Of a stretch of DNA of 64,000 bases, positions 18,273 through 54,631 are shown one piece after another. Each line of letters starts with the position of its first letter. Positions within the stretch are counted from its first letter, which is position 1. A model generated the notes under the pieces. The model was not told the DNA's origin. It searched no databases and was given only the letters and a program-made list of their open reading frames with translations. The translations under genes and the position numbers were made by a program. The DNA comes from Alphaproteobacteria bacterium (lineage in GTDB: Bacteria > Pseudomonadota > Alphaproteobacteria > CAAHEQ01 > UBA3637), in the NCBI GenBank assembly GCA_045660045.1, contig JAZRDB010000006.1, positions 465 to 64,464 on the forward strand, read 5' to 3'.

Positions 18273-21191
18273 ATGCGCATAAAGAATTGTATTTTCTTTG
18301 TTTTTGGATTTTTGCTTATGTCACTTTCGGCAAAGGCAGATGTAATGGCTATTCGTTTGCGTTTCGGGGCTGATGGTACATTAACAGATTTAGGAACTTC
18401 TTTAAGTTCAGAAAGTATGGCTCTGAGCAGCCCTATTGTTGAATCAGATGGTACGGTAACAGATCCAGTTGTTGCTGCGGCTGCGACAGAGGGAGAAACG
18501 GATGCACTGTTTTTAATGCCAGATGAGTCGAAAGATAATGACATAGACACCGATACAACAGATGCGGATGATGAGGAGACAAGCGGCTTGACAACGGCCG
18601 ACGAATCCGATGATTTGCGCAACACCGAAGGTGATGAGGAACCAGAAGAGGATCCTCCTTGTGAAGAGGGTTATCAACCGCGTCCAGATGGCGAATGTAT
18701 GTCCTGTCCAGCAAACGGCGAAATAATGACAATTGATGATGATCTGTATTATTGTTGCGGTAAGCGTGACGAAGATCCAACAAAGGACAAAGCGGGATAT
18801 GCATGGGAAAATGGTGCGTGGGTACAGAATATTAACTGTGGCTGTCCTTTGGGTGGCGAGACAAGTGAAGAGGATGATTCTGTTTGTTGTAAGGATGGTT
18901 ATACGTGGAGCAGAGCAACAGCAAGCTATACGGGGGTTGATCCGGCCGCTTGTGGATGCCCGAATGGTGGCGAACTGAACGAGGGTGAGTGTTGTAAAGA
19001 TGGGCGTGCATGGAATAGAACAGACTACACTGTCCTTAATGTGCCGGCGTGTGGATGTCCGTCTGGATCCACGCTTGAAGAGGATGTTTGTTGTGATGAT
19101 ACAAATCCAGGTACATTCCTTGATATGACGACTAGTACGTCAGATAAAGACAAAGCAATACGGTTGTGTGGTTGTCAAGAGGGAGAAACCATTATTACAT
19201 CCACGGGAGTTGCTGACGGATATGTGTGTTGTGGTAGCGATAAAAAGATTAAACGCAGCACTTCTAACATGGGAGATTTAACAGGTCAGGATGCAAAATA
19301 TTGTGGATGTACGTCGGGAGAATATTCAGAAAGCAAAGGGTGTGTACCTTGTTTGACTGACGCTTTTTGTTTGAATAATGGTTTGGGACGTGCCTGTTTA
19401 AAAAATGCAGATGTCACAAAACAAAAATGTGTTGAGTGTACACTGTCTGAACATTGTTATGAACAACCGTCGGGATGTTCAAATCCGAATACATGTTGTC
19501 CAGCATCCATCACAGACAAGGTATGTGATACCCAAACAAATACATGCAAGACATGTAGCGAGTTGACAAATAATATACGCCCAGTTCGTTGGCATGGGCT
19601 TGAGGATGTGAACTCTTGTAATTCATGTTATGAATGTACCGAGGATGCTCATTGTGCCTCGCGCATAGATGGCAAAAATATATGCGATCCGAATACGTTA
19701 ACATGTGAAGTGTGTATTTTGTATACAGAAACAAGCAACCAGAATCATGGATGTGAAAATGCGCAAACGGCTCCATTGGGTGTCGAGGATGAAAGATTTG
19801 CAGCGCCATATTGTGTTCTAAAAGACAAAAACGGAACGCGCCATTGTTCGGAATGCAGGAGTAATACGGATTGTCCGGCGGCGGACAGATCAAATTGTTT
19901 AGAAGAAAAGGGAATCTGCAGTATGGATTGCGGTAATATTGGTTTTAATCCAGAAACGGGCGAATGCCGATGCTCTGGGTCAACACCAGTCTTCAATATC
20001 TATACAAAAAAATGTGTTAAATGTTACGATTCCATTTCTGGGGCTTGGACTGATTTAGGATGTAATACCGAGCCGGATAAAACAAATTATCCTGCAGGAT
20101 CTCCATGGAATTATTCTCCATGGCAGGCGCCGAAGAGCAACAATAAACCAGTGTGTTGGGAAGATGGGGGAACAAACAAAACTGGTCAATGTGTGGAATG
20201 TATGGAAGATGGTCATTGTCCTGGGGACAAGCAATGTAATCAAAACACGCATACATGTGCGTGTCCGACGGATACAGTATGGGTTGAAAGTTCGGAAAAA
20301 TGTGCGCTATGTACAGCGAATTATGGGGCAACTTCCACAGGAAGAAAGTGTACTAGTGCAACAAAGCCATATTGTGGCTCAACGGGATGTACGTGTAAAG
20401 AGCCTTATAAATCTGATAAAAAAGATGGCGATGGCAAATGTCCAATAACACACCCCGGATGTAAGGACGGAGAATGCCAATGCCTTGGCGATTATGATAA
20501 AAATAAAAAAGATGGTGATGGTAAATGTCCAGAAAACAGACCAAAATGTGAGAACAAGGTTTGCAAATGTACAGGAAACTGGAAAGATAATCAATCTAGT
20601 ACTGGCGATTGTGTGGAAGGTATGCCTGTGTGTGATAATGGCGTTTGTAAGAAATGTGGCACAGGATTGGAATATAAGCTGTCCGAGCAAAAATGTGTGG
20701 CAAAAAGTTGTAAAAATGGAGAAGTGCTCAGTGGCGATACTTGTGTTTGTCCAAAAGGAAGATGGAAAAAAGGAAGTTCATGTCTTGCTTGTCCAACAGA
20801 TGGTTCTTGTACAACCATTGATGATACAACACCATGTCCAAGTACGGGTAAGCATGTGTTATTAGAACAAAGCGATAAGCCGGCCGCATGTGTTGCTTGT
20901 AAGGAACATACAGATTGTGCTGCAGGAAAATACTGCAAAGATAACGCATGTGTAAAATGTACTGAGGGATATGACTGTGGTTGTGGCAGCTTTAAGTGTG
21001 CAAATGGAGAAGGTGGATGCTTTACTCAGATACAATGGTGTCAAAAGAAGTTGGGCTCAAGTTACAATAAGAATCCATCGGAAAACGCTGCTTGTGCAGG
21101 ATATGTTTGCTGTAGCTATGCGAATAGTAAGTGGACGGGAAAGACACCATCTAATTGCACGGCCTGTGCATCGGGCAAGGCATGTCGCTAA
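18273..21191 (+). CDS. Very large secreted cysteine-rich modular protein (972 aa, about 107 Cys); function unknown
   Basis: Signal peptide MRIKNCIFFVFGFLLMSLSAKA|DV, then a D/E/T-rich acidic linker (aa ~85-129), then uninterrupted Cys-rich modules to the last residue. There is no TM helix or beta-barrel anchor. Confidence 0.85.
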   Translation: MRIKNCIFFVFGFLLMSLSAKADVMAIRLRFGADGTLTDLGTSLSSESMALSSPIVESDGTVTDPVVAAAATEGETDALFLMPDESKDNDIDTDTTDADDEETSGLTTADESDDLRNTEGDEEPEEDPPCEEGYQPRPDGECMSCPANGEIMTIDDDLYYCCGKRDEDPTKDKAGYAWENGAWVQNINCGCPLGGETSEEDDSVCCKDGYTWSRATASYTGVDPAACGCPNGGELNEGECCKDGRAWNRTDYTVLNVPACGCPSGSTLEEDVCCDDTNPGTFLDMTTSTSDKDKAIRLCGCQEGETIITSTGVADGYVCCGSDKKIKRSTSNMGDLTGQDAKYCGCTSGEYSESKGCVPCLTDAFCLNNGLGRACLKNADVTKQKCVECTLSEHCYEQPSGCSNPNTCCPASITDKVCDTQTNTCKTCSELTNNIRPVRWHGLEDVNSCNSCYECTEDAHCASRIDGKNICDPNTLTCEVCILYTETSNQNHGCENAQTAPLGVEDERFAAPYCVLKDKNGTRHCSECRSNTDCPAADRSNCLEEKGICSMDCGNIGFNPETGECRCSGSTPVFNIYTKKCVKCYDSISGAWTDLGCNTEPDKTNYPAGSPWNYSPWQAPKSNNKPVCWEDGGTNKTGQCVECMEDGHCPGDKQCNQNTHTCACPTDTVWVESSEKCALCTANYGATSTGRKCTSATKPYCGSTGCTCKEPYKSDKKDGDGKCPITHPGCKDGECQCLGDYDKNKKDGDGKCPENRPKCENKVCKCTGNWKDNQSSTGDCVEGMPVCDNGVCKKCGTGLEYKLSEQKCVAKSCKNGEVLSGDTCVCPKGRWKKGSSCLACPTDGSCTTIDDTTPCPSTGKHVLLEQSDKPAACVACKEHTDCAAGKYCKDNACVKCTEGYDCGCGSFKCANGEGGCFTQIQWCQKKLGSSYNKNPSENAACAGYVCCSYANSKWTGKTPSNCTACASGKACR
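18696..19352 (+). repeat. Coding repeat: six C-x-C-P-x-G-G-E ... C-C-x-D-G modules (aa 142-360)
   Basis: CMSCPANGE..CCGK; CGCPLGGE..CCKDGYTW; CGCPNGGE..CCKDGRAW; CGCPSGST..CCDD; CGCQEGET..CCGSD; CGCTSGEY..CVPC. Confidence 0.7.
20388..20648 (+). repeat. Coding repeat: three tandem 29-aa units (aa 706-792)
   Basis: CTCKEPYKSDKKDGDGKCPITHPGCKDGE / CQCLGDYDKNKKDGDGKCPENRPKCENKV / CKCTGNWKDNQSSTGDCVEGMPVCDNGV. The repeat is also visible in the DNA (aaaaaagatggYgatggYaaatgtcca occurs twice). Confidence 0.75.
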
Positions 21192-49787: not shown

Positions 49788-50437
49788 CCGAACAATTGGC
49801 TCTTGATTTTCCAACTCGTCAAGCATATGGTCGCTCAAATTTTTGGGTGGCTCCTTGTAATCAAGAGGCAATTGCATGGATTGATAAATATCCGAACTGG
49901 CCAACACATGCTCTGGTTATTTATGGAGAAGCTGGATCAGGTAAAACACATCTATCAGCAATTTTTTCGGACGAACGCATTGAGGCCAAAGATTTGACGG
50001 AAGAATTTATGCCACAAACGCAGAAAGTTGTCGTTGAAAATTTGGAAGAGTTGCGCGATGAAAAGGCCTTGTTTCATTTGTTTAATCGGATGAATGAAAT
50101 GAATGGTGGTTTATTGATGACGGCTCGAAAAATACCAAACTTTCTTTTGCCAGATTTGCAATCAAGAATTGGTATGACTCCCAAAGCAGAAATTAAAATG
50201 CCAGATGACGATACGCTGATGTCGATATGTGCCAAAATGTTCGCGGATAAACAAGCCATTGTAGAGCCTGCGGTTTTGATGTATATTGTAACGCGGGTGC
50301 CGCGTTCATTTGATGCGGTACGCAAGGTTGTGAATACGGTGGATGAATTGTCTTTAGCTCAAGGGCGACGTATCACAATTTATTTGGTGAAAGATGCAAT
50401 TGAAAAACTCACACAAAACGGAGGGTTTGATGGTTAA
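49784..50437 (+). CDS. hdaA: DnaA regulatory inactivator HdaA
   Basis: QLALDF N-terminus (clamp-binding-like) and Walker A GEAGSGKTHL. Size is about 217 aa, with an ATGA overlap with the upstream gene. Confidence 0.8.
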   Translation: MTEQLALDFPTRQAYGRSNFWVAPCNQEAIAWIDKYPNWPTHALVIYGEAGSGKTHLSAIFSDERIEAKDLTEEFMPQTQKVVVENLEELRDEKALFHLFNRMNEMNGGLLMTARKIPNFLLPDLQSRIGMTPKAEIKMPDDDTLMSICAKMFADKQAIVEPAVLMYIVTRVPRSFDAVRKVVNTVDELSLAQGRRITIYLVKDAIEKLTQNGGFDG

Positions 50438-52637
50438 AAAAAAGAAAAAAGTTAAAATGCCGTTTTGGATAAAGGGCAGTGTTTGGATTGTTATCGGTTT
50501 ATTAATTGGTTTAAGTTTAATCAGTTATCATAAATGGGACGCATCATGGAATACGGCCTCCAGTTTGCCAACAGCCAATTGGCTTAGCGCACCTGGTGCG
50601 TGGATAGCCGATGCATTATTACAGGCGTTTGGAGGAGTGGCAATTCTTTTCCCAATTGTGTGTTTTATCTTTGGGATTTTTGTCTTTTTGAAAAAAGAGC
50701 ATATGCGTTGGCGTGTTTTTGGATTGTTGTTTGCCAGTATTGTGGCTTGTTGGTTGTTGGCAGGTGTTCATATGCAAGCCTCAGATTTGTTTAAGGCTGG
50801 TTGGGGTGGTTTTGTCGGTTGTTATATTGCCGCATGGTATGTTCCGTCTAAGGCAGTTATGGTTTTGGCATGGATGGTTGTGGCGGCTTTGGTTGTTTTT
50901 ACGTTGAAATTACCCGTTGTGAAGATGGGAGCTTTAACGGGAGCCGGTCTTTTGTGGAGTATGAAGAAGGTGCCTGTGAAAGTGCCTGAAAAAATTAAAA
51001 AGCCATTTAAAGCAATATATGTGAAAGCCCAGGTAAATAAGATTAAAAAATCGGCACCAAAAGAAAAATTAAAAGCAACAGCTGTCCATAAAAAGAAAGC
51101 CGATATCATGGCGGATTTGAACGAGGAAAGTACATACGAATTACCATCAAGCACGTTGTTGGCGCCAGTCAAAGAATCTTCTGGTCCTGTGCTAAGTAAG
51201 GAAATGATGGCTCATTATTCCGAAAAATTGGAAAATGTTTTGCGTGAATTCCAAGTACAAGGGAAAATTACCAAAGTGGCTCCCGGACCCGTAGTAACAT
51301 TATATTCATTTGAACCAGCTTCTGGTGTGAAAGTGTCGCGCGTGATTTCTTTGGCGGAAGATGTGGCTCGTGAAATGGAAGTGCAGTCCGTTCGGATGGC
51401 TGTGATTCCTGGAACTAATGCTATTGGTATCGAGATGCCTAATAAATCGCGTGAAACAGTTTATGTGCGCGAAATGATTGAGCAACCTTCTTTCCAAGAA
51501 CATACGGGTTCCTTGCCAATTATTTTGGGTAAAGATATTGGGGGGCATCCTGTGTACGCAGATTTGGCAAAAATGCCACATTTGTTGGTGGCGGGTACAA
51601 CTGGTTCTGGTAAGTCGGTAGGTATTAATACAATGATTTTGTCTTTGTTGTATCGCTTTACGCCAGAACAATGCCGTTTGATTTTGGTGGATCCAAAGAT
51701 GGTGGAATTGTCTGTTTATAATGGAATTCCTCATTTGTTGACGCCTGTGGTGACAGAGCCACAAAAGGCTTTGATGGCGCTTAAATGGGCAGTGCATGAA
51801 ATGGAAGATCGTTACCGGTCTATGAGTCAATTGGGCGTTAGAAATATCATCGGTTTCAATGAGAAACTAAAACAGGCCAAGGCTGAAGGAATTGAGTTAA
51901 AACGCCGTGTGCAGACGGGTTTTGACGCTGCAACAGGTGAGCCAATTATGGAAGATAAACCATTTGATTTAACGCCATTGCCATATATCGTCTTTATTAT
52001 TGATGAGATGGCCGATTTGATGGGGCAATGTGGTAAAGAAGCAGATCCATTGATTCAACGTTTAGCACAAATGGCGCGTGCGGTGGGTATCCACTTGATT
52101 TTGGCTACGCAACGTCCATCTGTGGATGTGATTACGGGTACAATTAAATCCAATTTCCCGTCGCGTATTTCTTTCCAAGTGCGCAACAAAATTGACTCAC
52201 GTACAATTTTGGATGAACAGGGGGCTGAACAATTGTTGGGACGTGGGGACATGCTATATATGCCCGCAGGCAACAAGCCGACTCGTGTGCATGGACCATT
52301 TGTGTCAGACGATGATGTGTTGGCGGTTGTAAAACATTGGTCGCATCAGGGAAGCCCGGAGTATGTGGATGCGGTTGTATCTGAGTCGGCGAATATGGCA
52401 GGTGGTGCTTTTGGGGGCGCAGGAAACAGCGGTGATGAGCTTTATGATAAAGCTGTCCAGATTGTGTTGCGTGACAAAAAACCAACAACCAGTTATATTC
52501 AACGGCGCTTGTCTATCGGCTATAATAAGGCCGCTGATTTGATCGATCGGATGGAGGCTGAGGGTATTATTTCGGCTCCAAATGTGGCAGGTAAACGAGA
52601 AATTTTGGCTCCTAACGCTGGTGGAGGCGAAGGATGA
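50430..52637 (+). CDS. ftsK: DNA translocase FtsK
   Basis: N-terminal TM helices, motor domain (GTTGSGKSVGIN, ATQRPSVDVITG), and gamma domain (IQRRLSIGYNKAADLIDRME). The ATG at 50430 sits behind ggaggg. Confidence 0.95.
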   Translation: MVKKKKKVKMPFWIKGSVWIVIGLLIGLSLISYHKWDASWNTASSLPTANWLSAPGAWIADALLQAFGGVAILFPIVCFIFGIFVFLKKEHMRWRVFGLLFASIVACWLLAGVHMQASDLFKAGWGGFVGCYIAAWYVPSKAVMVLAWMVVAALVVFTLKLPVVKMGALTGAGLLWSMKKVPVKVPEKIKKPFKAIYVKAQVNKIKKSAPKEKLKATAVHKKKADIMADLNEESTYELPSSTLLAPVKESSGPVLSKEMMAHYSEKLENVLREFQVQGKITKVAPGPVVTLYSFEPASGVKVSRVISLAEDVAREMEVQSVRMAVIPGTNAIGIEMPNKSRETVYVREMIEQPSFQEHTGSLPIILGKDIGGHPVYADLAKMPHLLVAGTTGSGKSVGINTMILSLLYRFTPEQCRLILVDPKMVELSVYNGIPHLLTPVVTEPQKALMALKWAVHEMEDRYRSMSQLGVRNIIGFNEKLKQAKAEGIELKRRVQTGFDAATGEPIMEDKPFDLTPLPYIVFIIDEMADLMGQCGKEADPLIQRLAQMARAVGIHLILATQRPSVDVITGTIKSNFPSRISFQVRNKIDSRTILDEQGAEQLLGRGDMLYMPAGNKPTRVHGPFVSDDDVLAVVKHWSHQGSPEYVDAVVSESANMAGGAFGGAGNSGDELYDKAVQIVLRDKKPTTSYIQRRLSIGYNKAADLIDRMEAEGIISAPNVAGKREILAPNAGGGEG

Positions 52638-53380
52638 AATGGGCACTTGTCTTGGGTGTATTGTGTATGTCTGTCGCCGCTAGAGCCGTCGATTGTCCGG
52701 AAGCTTTCCCCCTAAAAAGTGCTGATGGCAATTGTTATTCTTGTTATGACGATCGGTTTAATATACGTGTTTTAACTCCTGCCGATTGTACCGTATGTGA
52801 AAATAGAGAACTAGGAAAATATTACATTGACACTATTTCTGTTGGATTGGGGTGCCATAAAAAATGTCCCGATGAAGCCCCTATGGTGAATAGCAAAATG
52901 GATGGATGTTATGGGTGCGATACATCAGTTGTGGCTGTATCCCAAAATGAATGTACAAAATGTTTTAACAGAGAATTTGATAAAGGTCGTTGTTGGTTTA
53001 AAGACGAATCACAAGAGGCTACGGTGTGGAGATATTTAGCGCAAACAGGGAAGTGTCTTGATTGGTGTGAAGAAGAATTGGTTCTTGGAGAGTGTAATGA
53101 TTTATCCTCTCATGTATCAAGGCCAAAGGATTGTGGGAGCTGTTCTAATCGGATAATGGTTGGTAAATATTGTGCATTAAAGAAATGTCCAGACGATACC
53201 ATTCGCTCGAAGATTGGGGGGTGTTGGAGTTGTAATGATGAAATAATAAAACGTTTGGGCACTTCCGAGATTTTTCCTTCAAATCCAGAAAATACACCTG
53301 AATTTTCAAAAGAAGAGTGTCAAAAGTGTCCAGATTTGATTTATAAAAATGGTGTTTGTATAACAAGGAGTAAACGATGA
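52634..53380 (+). CDS. Secreted cysteine-rich CxxC-repeat protein (248 aa, about 25 Cys); function unknown
   Basis: Signal peptide MKWALVLGVLCMSVAARA. About four repeats of CxxC ... (D/E)CxxCxNR ... CxxxCP(D)(D/E). ATGA overlaps occur at both ends, with ftsK and with lolA. Confidence 0.75.
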   Translation: MKWALVLGVLCMSVAARAVDCPEAFPLKSADGNCYSCYDDRFNIRVLTPADCTVCENRELGKYYIDTISVGLGCHKKCPDEAPMVNSKMDGCYGCDTSVVAVSQNECTKCFNREFDKGRCWFKDESQEATVWRYLAQTGKCLDWCEEELVLGECNDLSSHVSRPKDCGSCSNRIMVGKYCALKKCPDDTIRSKIGGCWSCNDEIIKRLGTSEIFPSNPENTPEFSKEECQKCPDLIYKNGVCITRSKR

Positions 53381-53997
53381 AAAAACTGATTGTATTATTT
53401 TTAGTATTGTTTTTTGCCTCACCAAGTTTTGCATTGGTGGACAAGAAAATTGATACAAAAGCGAATCGTGCGATTTTAACAAAAGTGGAAAAGGCCTATA
53501 ACAAAATGAAAACATTGCAGGCCAAGTTTGCGCAATTTAATTCAAAGATGAAGGATGAATTGCACACGGGAACAATTTATATATCCAAACCTGGTCAAAT
53601 GCGGTTGCAATATGAAAAAGGATCGCCTTTGGAATTTGTGGCGACAAATGGTGCTTTTATTTATCACGATAAGGATTTAGAGGAGGTTAATTATTTCGAT
53701 TTAAACAGTACGCCGGTGGAATGGATTTTGCGTGATAAGTTAGTATTTGACGACCCTGGATTTGTGGTGACAGAGGTGCAAGATGTGCTGGATGAATATT
53801 TTATCACCGCCCACAAAAAAGGCGCAAAAGAGCTGGGAGAATTGACACTTGTCATCGATAAAGATGAAATGATGTTAAAACAATGGGACATTTTGGATGT
53901 GCAAGGAATCAAGTCCACAGTTTCACTTTTTGACATTCAACAAAATATTCCTGTTGACAAAAAGATTTTTATGTTCCAAAATCCATATAAGGACTAA
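53377..53997 (+). CDS. lolA: Outer-membrane lipoprotein carrier protein LolA
   Basis: Signal peptide, then LQAKFAQ...G.IYISKPGQMRLQY, typical of LolA. It lies downstream of ftsK as in many proteobacteria. Confidence 0.8.
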   Translation: MKKLIVLFLVLFFASPSFALVDKKIDTKANRAILTKVEKAYNKMKTLQAKFAQFNSKMKDELHTGTIYISKPGQMRLQYEKGSPLEFVATNGAFIYHDKDLEEVNYFDLNSTPVEWILRDKLVFDDPGFVVTEVQDVLDEYFITAHKKGAKELGELTLVIDKDEMMLKQWDILDVQGIKSTVSLFDIQQNIPVDKKIFMFQNPYKD

Positions 53998-54013: not shown

Positions 54014-54631
54014 ATGAAAAAGTTATTGTTACTATCCGCATGTTTGTTGGCAATGCCTGCTATGGCTCAGAAAATGGGAGAATGTGCTTTAACGCCACTC
54101 CAAAATTTAATTGTGAATGCACGTGGCGCAGAAGAAGTTCAAGCGCTGATTCAACGTGGTGTTGTCTTCGATGAACAAGTCCGTTGCGGTGGAACGTTGA
54201 CGCAGTTGGCGATTCGTCGTGGCAATCCAGATGTGTTGGAAGCTATTTTACGCCAAGATCAAAATCGAGCAAATGCAACGGTTGCATTGGATGCCTTTCC
54301 TATTGTGGGTGCTCCCAAACAAATTCCATTGATATTGTTCGCTGCGTATTATGCCCCAAATAAACAAATTATTGAATTGTTGGAGGCTGCTGGTGCCAAT
54401 ATCTCTGTCACTGATGATTTTGGTCGGAATTTGTTGTGGTATCTGAACAAAAATCCAGTACTCAGAAGAACAGCCCTTGAAGACGATTTGAATAATAAAT
54501 TGTTGTATGGTATGGTGGCTGCTCAAAGTTCTGATCAAGGACAAGGGGGAGCACAACAACAAGGACGTCCAGCACAACAAGCCGCTCCTGCTCCCACAAA
54601 GGAGCCAGCGGCTAATCTGGTTGCAGAATAA
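54014..54631 (+). CDS. Secreted ankyrin-repeat-like protein with a Q/G/A/P-rich tail
   Basis: Signal peptide MKKLLLLSACLLAMPAMA. ANK-like units include TPLQNLIVNARGAEEVQALIQRGV, GTLTQLAIRRGNPDVLEAIL, and IILFAAYYAPNKQIIELLEAAGANISVTDDFG. Confidence 0.5.
   Translation: MKKLLLLSACLLAMPAMAQKMGECALTPLQNLIVNARGAEEVQALIQRGVVFDEQVRCGGTLTQLAIRRGNPDVLEAILRQDQNRANATVALDAFPIVGAPKQIPLILFAAYYAPNKQIIELLEAAGANISVTDDFGRNLLWYLNKNPVLRRTALEDDLNNKLLYGMVAAQSSDQGQGGAQQQGRPAQQAAPAPTKEPAANLVAE

Follow-up and report, generated by a model that had tools for sequence, protein, structure and literature searches.

What maintains a gene for a small, cysteine-rich exported protein between ftsK and lolA, two core genes that it overlaps on either side? 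The question is raised by a 64,000-nt window of contig JAZRDB010000006.1, contig 6 of a 0.91-Mb alphaproteobacterial genome (GCA_045660045.1; 15 contigs, 89% complete, 41% GC). The open reading frame (ORF) in question (52634..53380, +) encodes a modular protein of 248 aa with seven CxxC motifs and 25 Cys, one at residue 11 within the signal peptide and 24 in the mature part. Its ATG at 52634 overlaps the TGA of ftsK (GGATGAAA) and its own TGA at 53378-53380 overlaps the ATG of lolA at 53377 (CGATGAAA). The original prediction had described an accessory exported protein with about four Cys repeats, spliced into a conserved core-gene junction through ATGA overlaps, and each element of that description was borne out: the signal peptide and the 24 mature Cys by the translation, the overlaps by the sequence, and the repeats by a module hidden Markov model (HMM), which finds four with the third partial. 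The main feature of the locus was absent from it, namely that the junction acts as a hypervariable slot, whose occupant may be missing or replaced by another allele, and is not the site of a one-off splice. We propose that the occupant is a variable exported binding or surface protein, probably disulfide-stabilised and of an undescribed family, that sits in a slot where alleles are replaced, and we give this reading as a whole a probability of about 60%.

The interval from the end of ftsK to the start of lolA was compared in 41 genomes, 25 from the bacterial family that holds the genus of the window's organism (family f1) and 16 from other families. The genus is represented by 21 species with genomes of 0.7-1.2 Mb (G000, the window's own genome, to G020). 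The slot is occupied in nine of them (G000, G007, G014, G003, G001, G019, G004, G013 and G011), with a gap of 543-1550 nt, and empty in the other 12, where ftsK and lolA overlap or lie <=14 nt apart. In the four other f1 genera and in most of the other families, ftsK is adjacent to lolA with 30-250 nt between them and no insert, so that the synteny comparison proposed with the original prediction places the insert in nine species of the genus and in none of the other f1 genera. A single intact ORF fills each of the nine gaps; it encodes 177-507 aa, including a signal peptide and 12-41 Cys, and is made up of the same modules. These ORFs align with invariant C21, P22, P26, C34, C37, C55, R58, K76, C78 and P79, among others.

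The boundaries of the slot are sharp to the codon. In the window, the left boundary (52620..52640, +) comprises the ftsK 3' end GGTGGAGGCGAAGGATGAAAT, with a Shine-Dalgarno (SD)-like GGAGG and the ATGA overlap, and the right boundary (53362..53383, +) reads AACAAGGAGTAAACGATGAAAA, with AAGGAG, the SD sequence for lolA, lying within the Cys ORF ahead of the second ATGA overlap; GATGAAA is present at both. An alignment of the 12 empty junctions shows the same GGATGAAAAA overlap in those of the G000 clade, and their sequence (...GAAGGATGAAAAAA...) has the same ftsK 3' end and ATGA as are found before the Cys ORF of G000. In the more distant empty species the ftsK tail differs, and the two genes either overlap or abut. 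In a maximum-likelihood tree built from the 3' 1.5 kb of ftsK and lolA, loci with and without an insert are intermingled within each of the three clades, as in G000 and L009 (L numbers denote loci on relatives' contigs) beside G020, G001 beside G015, G011 beside G006 and G013 beside G012, and at least seven state changes are needed when parsimony is counted by hand. Across these genomes, the ftsK-lolA junction thus behaves as a sharply bounded, hypervariable slot that is filled in some species and vacant in others.

Since every sequence comes from metagenome assemblies, a non-functional origin, either as a chance ORF or as an assembly chimera at the junction, had to be considered. Four independent assemblies (ENA, JGI, Logan) contain the same allele and another a 91% variant, the slot lies within long contigs of 20-160 kb, and intact positional orthologues occur in eight other species of the genus and on several metagenome contigs. 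Between G000 and its 79%-identical orthologue in L009, dN/dS of the Cys gene is 0.11, all 24 mature Cys are kept, and dS (1.08) is close to that of the two flanks (1.16 and 0.78; flank dN/dS 0.02). Together with a confident structural model (see below), these observations effectively refute the explanation, to which we attach almost no weight. By its conservation the ORF is a real gene, with a predicted Sec signal peptide, and the substitution pattern shows that within one allele lineage it is vertically inherited under purifying selection.

Inheritance between lineages appears to be of a different kind. Protein identity between alleles is 28-45% for all pairs except G000 and L009 (79%), it is independent of the DNA identity of the flanks (71-94%), and allele similarity is discordant with the tree (G007 and G013, for example, reach 45%). 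An ancestral gene of the genus could have diverged very rapidly in place, by positive selection and by gain or loss of modules, and been deleted independently in many lineages without any exchange of alleles. Such a history would account for the N-terminal two-module layout shared by all slot alleles, for the similar C-terminal CPNREY.DG.C.LK motif in most of them and for the lack of donor copies, and with losses only it takes eight losses and one gain, or nine changes against the seven-change minimum (hand count). It would not predict allele identities that fail to scale with phylogenetic distance. Furthermore, the flanks of G003, G019 and G004 are 94-96% identical at the DNA level, whereas their slot proteins of 202, 268 and 307 aa are only 38-40% identical: DNA identity stays near 96% until the last ftsK codons, falls to noise level in the slot and returns to about 96% from the lolA ATG. 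This abrupt loss and return of identity argues for cassette replacement rather than gradual drift, and to produce it in place the local substitution rate would have to be far above the synonymous rate. The agreement of slot and flank dS between G000 and L009, with a dN/dS of 0.11, gives no indication of hypermutation and also counts against divergence in place, which we regard as unlikely. We infer instead that whole alleles are swapped between lineages by recombination through the flanks.

Two known routes of cassette exchange were tried and rejected. A silent-cassette or intragenomic donor of the pilE/pilS or msp2 type would require a second copy of the G019 allele, and none exists in its own genome or in the genus, which makes such a mechanism unlikely. 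An integron or mobile cassette does not fit either, since only chance-level short repeats were found and no attC-like repeat, flanking repeat or integrase; the neighbours (Hda, FtsK, LolA, an ankyrin-like protein, an OmpR-like regulator and KdtA) include no integrase or transposase. No near-identical allele is common to distant species among the 21 genomes.

Metagenome contigs add further alleles in the same slot: P0013 (318 aa) and P0012 (223 aa), with 4-nt overlaps on both sides, and P0015 (327 aa), which begins immediately downstream of the preceding gene and shares a single base with lolA. In one sample, ERZ27257207, two contigs carry different alleles at the ftsK-lolA locus, L009 with a 247-aa allele of the G000 type and L084 with a 223-aa allele of the G007 type, which shows that populations with different alleles co-occur. 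A second slot was seen in a relative (L082:1988-3828), where recF and gyrB are separated by a 333-aa exported protein followed by a 275-aa member of the family, P0009. The signal peptides of the 333-aa protein and P0009 are almost identical. In the window's genome (C10:7984-11537) recF and gyrB are 17 nt apart and this slot is empty. Since family members lie in both places, the family has variable slots at no fewer than two junctions between core genes.

The occupant itself begins with a Sec-type signal peptide (residues 1-18, MKWALVLGVLCMSVAARA; 52634..52687, +), as read from the sequence, with an AxA cleavage motif before VDC, and all positional orthologues have signal peptides that align with its N-terminus. 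Neither a lipobox nor a prepilin motif is present in this N-terminus. The C-terminus (...KNGVCITRSKR) is without a hydrophobic segment. What lies between is built from a module of about 50 aa with six Cys, C1-P-x-[DE]-x-P-[LM] ... C2-x-x-C3 ... C4-x-x-C5-[PN]-N-R-[EY] ... C6, for which the aligned consensus is CPxDKPL...GxCxSCD...CxxCPNR....GxCxL. Module 1 (residues 21-74, CPEAFPL..CYSC..CTVCENRE..C; 52694..52855, +) is found with a module-HMM i-E of 3e-13 and modelled with a predicted local distance difference test (pLDDT) score of about 90-96. Module 2 (residues 78-123, CPDEAPM..CYGC..CTKCFNRE..C; 52865..53002, +; i-E 4.4e-16) has Cys columns that are invariant or nearly so in the alignment of positional orthologues. 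A linker with CLDWC then precedes the partial module 3 (residues 154-184, CGSCSNR..C; 53093..53185, +; i-E 0.002), and pLDDT is 49-64 over residues 121-150. Module 4 (residues 185-245, CPDD..CWSC..(long loop)..CQKCPDLIYKNGVC; 53186..53368, +; i-E 2.5e-15) is the counterpart of the conserved C-terminal motif of the other slot alleles.

This module corresponds to no family in the databases searched. Pfam and NCBIfam scans of the 248-aa protein gave zero matches (Pfam at E <= 0.1), and the family profile, searched against PDB sequences, returned a chance match alone (E 0.51). The whole protein scores E 3.4e-67 against the family profile, which includes this protein, so that the score is not independent. 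A single-sequence search of 5.8 billion proteins found just two close homologues, one 91% and the other 79% identical, and a search with the alignment of positional orthologues found 20. With the profile, 1.84 billion cluster representatives yielded 534 matches at E <= 1e-3, 317 at <= 1e-10 and 83 at <= 1e-30; the matches are 136-1616 aa long with up to eight matched stretches each, and the sole name among them is 'MAG: hypothetical protein [Alphaproteobacteria bacterium]' (MAG, metagenome-assembled genome). By genome, matches occur in 19 of the 25 f1 genomes, with up to 31 in one of them, and the 16 genomes of other families contain no family match beyond two at E about 0.07. The 156 best representatives have a median Cys content of 9.1% and 1-16 modules each (913 in total), and by regular expression 109 of the 156 have Sec-like N-termini and 19 prepilin-type N-termini (GRSMVEML). 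The occurrence of the module behind both Sec-like and pilin-like N-termini suggests that it is used outside the cytoplasm. These searches thus show an undescribed and fast-evolving module family, confined among the genomes sampled to one family of uncultured rumen and gut Alphaproteobacteria with genomes of about 1 Mb.

Structure prediction with AlphaFold2 and the family alignment gave a pLDDT of 78 and a predicted template modelling score (pTM) of 0.48 for the whole protein, the modules being confident and the linkers not; modules 1-2 alone reached a pLDDT of 93.9 and a pTM of 0.75 and were modelled mostly as beta-hairpins. Foldseek searches of the PDB returned nothing significant for the whole model (best E 0.21, probability <= 0.09) or for modules 1-2 (best E 0.83, probability <= 0.09), and the best BFVD match of the whole model (E 3.8e-3, probability 0.11) was not significant either. 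The top chance-level matches were to the eukaryotic cystine-rich domains of Meckelin, CD40, 4-1BB, CaSR CRD and megalin, and sub-threshold Pfam echoes of TNFR_ELAPOR1_6th, NCD3G, Ephrin_rec_like and Furin-like_2 appeared in 2-4 of 33 members (best E 7.8e-4). Like Ephrin_rec_like (PF07699), furin-like (PF15913), TNFR-like (PF23091) and NCD3G (PF07562) domains, the module is predicted to be a beta-hairpin unit of about 40-55 aa with six Cys that forms rods, and both it and those repeats include C-x-x-C-P-x-x-x-[YF]; unlike them, it carries the CPx(D/E)xPL and CPNRE signatures, which are specific to the new family. Membership of these eukaryotic families was rejected because no member reaches the Pfam gathering score and the Foldseek probability is <= 0.09. 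The models therefore suggest a protein that is a small cystine-rich repeat rod in character, yet one with no demonstrable membership of any known family. Since the family has neither a Pfam model nor a structural relative, determining its structure would establish a new small domain.

Whether the Cys are joined in disulfides or hold a metal was approached through their joint loss in 954 aligned modules from the 156 top representatives and the slot alleles. The commonest pattern, in 492 of the 954, has all six Cys present. When only residues are counted, C4 and C6 are both Cys in 731 modules and both another residue in 16, C4 alone is Cys in 5 and C6 alone in 12; when alignment gaps are counted as missing Cys, the co-absence of C4 and C6 has an odds ratio of 40 (p = 4e-48). 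Joint loss suggests that C4 and C6 are disulfide partners, and since it is C6, rather than C2, C3 or C5, that disappears along with C4, the pattern argues against a zinc site formed by C2-C3-C4-C5. The window's own genome encodes a DsbA-like protein with a signal peptide and a CPHC site (C8:34313-34936), as well as a membrane-anchored thioredoxin-fold protein with CGWC and a Cys-rich N-terminal tail CKCGCGGECSCCKCG (C2:28279-29106). On balance disulfides are favoured over zinc, with zinc retaining a substantial minority share of our judgement.

Several points weigh against the reading of the occupant as a disulfide-stabilised protein exchanged by recombination. All of the genomes compared are MAGs, that is, population consensus sequences; recombination is deduced from the sharp boundaries; and some internal nodes of the tree are weak (45-59%), so that the count of gains and losses is approximate. 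No donor allele was found for any of the replacements, and in the 21 genomes the best match of the G019 allele is the G001 slot allele at 39%, which would mean that the allele pool is largely unsampled. On the chemical side, the CxxC-x(12-17)-CxxC spacing fits zinc-ribbon knuckles as well, and DsbB (PF02600) and VKOR (PF07884) are absent from all 21 genus genomes although control genomes match, a gap in the route by which disulfides would be made in this anaerobic rumen organism.

The chemical points would be expected if the protein were a periplasmic partner of LolA lipoprotein trafficking or of envelope steps in division, either metal-binding in the manner of a zinc ribbon or acting in thiol redox, and placed here because of a shared function. 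The seven CxxC motifs form pairs of that spacing, Cys could stay reduced or bind metal in a genus that lacks DsbB and VKOR, the gene is tightly packed with ftsK and lolA, and a few members have sub-threshold Pfam matches to Zn-ribbon families. A partner of this kind would hardly be dispensable, however, and the gene is missing from 12 of the 21 genus species and from all other genera. Nor would a housekeeping partner be expected to be 28-45% identical where LolA and FtsK are 76-97% identical, and neither the pairing of C4 with C6 nor the presence of the same module on pilin-like proteins and in the recF-gyrB slot agrees with it. We therefore consider a metal-binding or redox partner improbable, and return to a variable binding or surface protein as the reading preferred.

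That reading gains context from known variable loci. Replacement ('flexible') islands and hypervariable surface loci flanked by core genes are known from host-associated and environmental bacteria and include those for O-antigen, flagellin and pilin glycosylation. The ftsK-lolA slot shares with them conserved flanks, a sharp drop in identity, divergent alleles in close relatives and an exported product. It differs in being a single small ORF that here and in several relatives has 4-nt overlaps with both core genes, in lying within an apparent single operon, in being often empty, and in encoding an undescribed Cys-rich repeat family, where the known islands carry genes for glycosyltransferases or filament subunits. 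Judged by these features, the slot resembles a replacement island or variable surface-protein locus, but one that encodes a new domain family. A further resemblance is to the variant-specific surface proteins (VSPs) of Giardia and other CxxC-rich antigens of protists, which are likewise gut-dwelling, exported, about 10% Cys, rich in CxxC, modular and highly variable, and by analogy a protease-resistant coat function is plausible. Identity with the Giardia VSP family (PF03302) was rejected, as there is no Pfam match at E <= 0.1 and no C-terminal transmembrane anchor or conserved tail; the present proteins are bacterial, and they vary between genomes by allele replacement rather than by switching within a silent repertoire. 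Modular type IV pilins with C-terminal adhesive modules are known as well, for example Streptococcus sanguinis PilB/PilC, CofB of enterotoxigenic Escherichia coli and IncI PilV, and the prepilin-type minority of the family representatives (19/156) recalls this arrangement and implies that the module is exposed outside the cell. The 248-aa protein is not itself a type IV pilin or pseudopilin, since it has a Sec signal peptide with AxA and neither a class III signal nor a pilin head.

An exported, Cys-rich protein that is hypervariable and variably present in small, probably dependent genomes might also be an antagonistic or signalling protein, such as a bacteriocin or an effector directed at competitors or at a eukaryotic host, with the alleles as products of an arms race. 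The weak, non-significant fold matches to Cys-rich domains of eukaryotic receptors and to small disulfide toxins are in keeping with this. The neighbouring genes (for Hda, FtsK, LolA and the ankyrin-like protein) include no immunity, processing or dedicated export gene, though, the Pfam and NCBIfam scans detected no toxin or enzymatic domain, and a repeat rod whose module also occurs on pilin-like proteins is more in keeping with binding than with killing. An antagonistic role is accordingly very improbable in our estimate.

In the mechanism that we propose for such a protein, the conserved core genes would act as homology arms and whole alleles would be exchanged with breakpoints at the start and stop codons. 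Precise loss of the occupant could plausibly occur via the GATGAAA microhomology, leaving the ftsK TGA overlapping the lolA ATG. The modules, probably stapled by disulfides with C4 and C6 as partners, would form a protease-resistant rod that serves as a variable binding or surface-exposed protein, be it an adhesin, a receptor or a decoy, and phages, partner or host cells, or gut immunity could impose diversifying, frequency-dependent selection on it. A bolder version, which we hold to be possible but doubtful, is that the module represents a new cystine-knot-like or metal-stapled fold, and that the two junctions, ftsK-lolA and recF-gyrB, are part of a genome-wide set of slots embedded in core genes, where these small-genome rumen bacteria would keep interchangeable exported binding proteins within essential operons; the proteins would always be expressed, be swapped through essential genes and be folded, in an anaerobe, by way of an unknown DsbA re-oxidation without DsbB or VKOR.

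In the account of Stewart et al. 2019 (PMC6785717), small-genome rumen Proteobacteria are common and poorly annotated, their proteins sharing only 45-60% identity with those already known. The relatives recovered here are MAGs of uncultured Alphaproteobacteria from goat abomasum and rumen, and also include UBA3768 and UBA3650; the host lineage, with genomes of about 1 Mb, is frequent in ruminant guts and uncultured. That so small a genome keeps a large and fast-changing set of Cys-rich exported proteins signals a need of its lifestyle, probably attachment to, or evasion of, a partner, host or phages. With one gene, codon-sharp boundaries and two universal flanking genes, the ftsK-lolA slot offers a compact and recognisable marker locus, which could be used for strain typing, for studies of frequency-dependent selection in metagenomes and for the choice of alleles for binding or structural work. 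Cys-rich exported proteins in the absence of DsbB and VKOR also pose a concrete biochemical question, namely what re-oxidises DsbA.

The slot is set in a co-directional gene array with overlaps or tiny gaps, in which Hda and an AI-2E transporter are encoded upstream of ftsK. The left flank, ftsK (50394..52637, +), was identified by the Pfam domains FtsK_4TM, FtsK_alpha, FtsK_SpoIIIE and FtsK_gamma, and the C-terminal 308 aa of its product are 84-97% identical across the genus; the right flank, lolA (53377..53997, +; Pfam LolA PF03548, 8.7e-21), is 76-93% identical. The listed ftsK start at ATG 50394 gives a protein of 747 aa and a 44-nt overlap with hda, and an internal ATG at 50430 (MVKKKKKVKMPFW) gives a 735-aa FtsK and an overlap of 8 nt. 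Since FtsK of the relatives has 735 aa and starts with MPKKKKK, the true start is probably ATG 50430. A promoter and terminator scan of the array found nothing exceeding shuffled expectation. The 4-nt overlaps of the Cys gene recur in G007, G014 and metagenome alleles, and G004 and G019 have short gaps before lolA. Translational coupling to ftsK and lolA is plausible, being consistent with the overlaps and with the SD-like motifs inside the upstream genes (GGAGG before 52634 and AAGGAG before 53377), and expression of the Cys gene would then probably ride on an hda-ftsK-lolA transcript by re-initiation at the ATGA overlaps.

Downstream of lolA lies the gene for an ankyrin-like protein with a signal peptide (54014-54631; Pfam Ank_4, 27.3 bits against a cut-off of 22.7), as the original prediction had noted. 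Its position is kept in all relatives examined (205-217 aa; L009, L083, L084 and L085), and it is a stable part of the locus, unlike the Cys-rich gene. A second proposal made at the same time, that the 248-aa protein shares a family with a 972-aa protein encoded elsewhere in the window (18273-21191), did not stand. The two are alike in being exported, about 10-11% Cys, lineage-specific and unannotated, but BLASTP gave E 2.1, the family and module HMMs with filters off gave no match at E <= 10, and the profile-profile comparison by hhalign gave a probability of 0.66%.

Within the window's own genome the 248-aa protein has no close paralogue, and only three weak single-module matches were found, at E 1e-4 to 5e-4. 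These are a lipoprotein-like protein of 237 aa that ends in one CxxC..CxxCSNR..C module (C11:10743-11456, -), a 303-aa protein with one CPKHHPL..CYAC module (C15:28482-29393, -) and a 438-aa protein with 50 Cys that combines a module with EGF-like repeats and a Gly-run leader (C12:21943-23259, +). The genome is also rich in other Cys-rich exported and pilin-like proteins, among them very large Cys-rich proteins of 868-1648 aa with 78-126 Cys and prepilin-like N-termini (GRSMLEM...), encoded at C2:82-3096 (-), C7:95964-98570 (-) and C1:4433-9379 (-).

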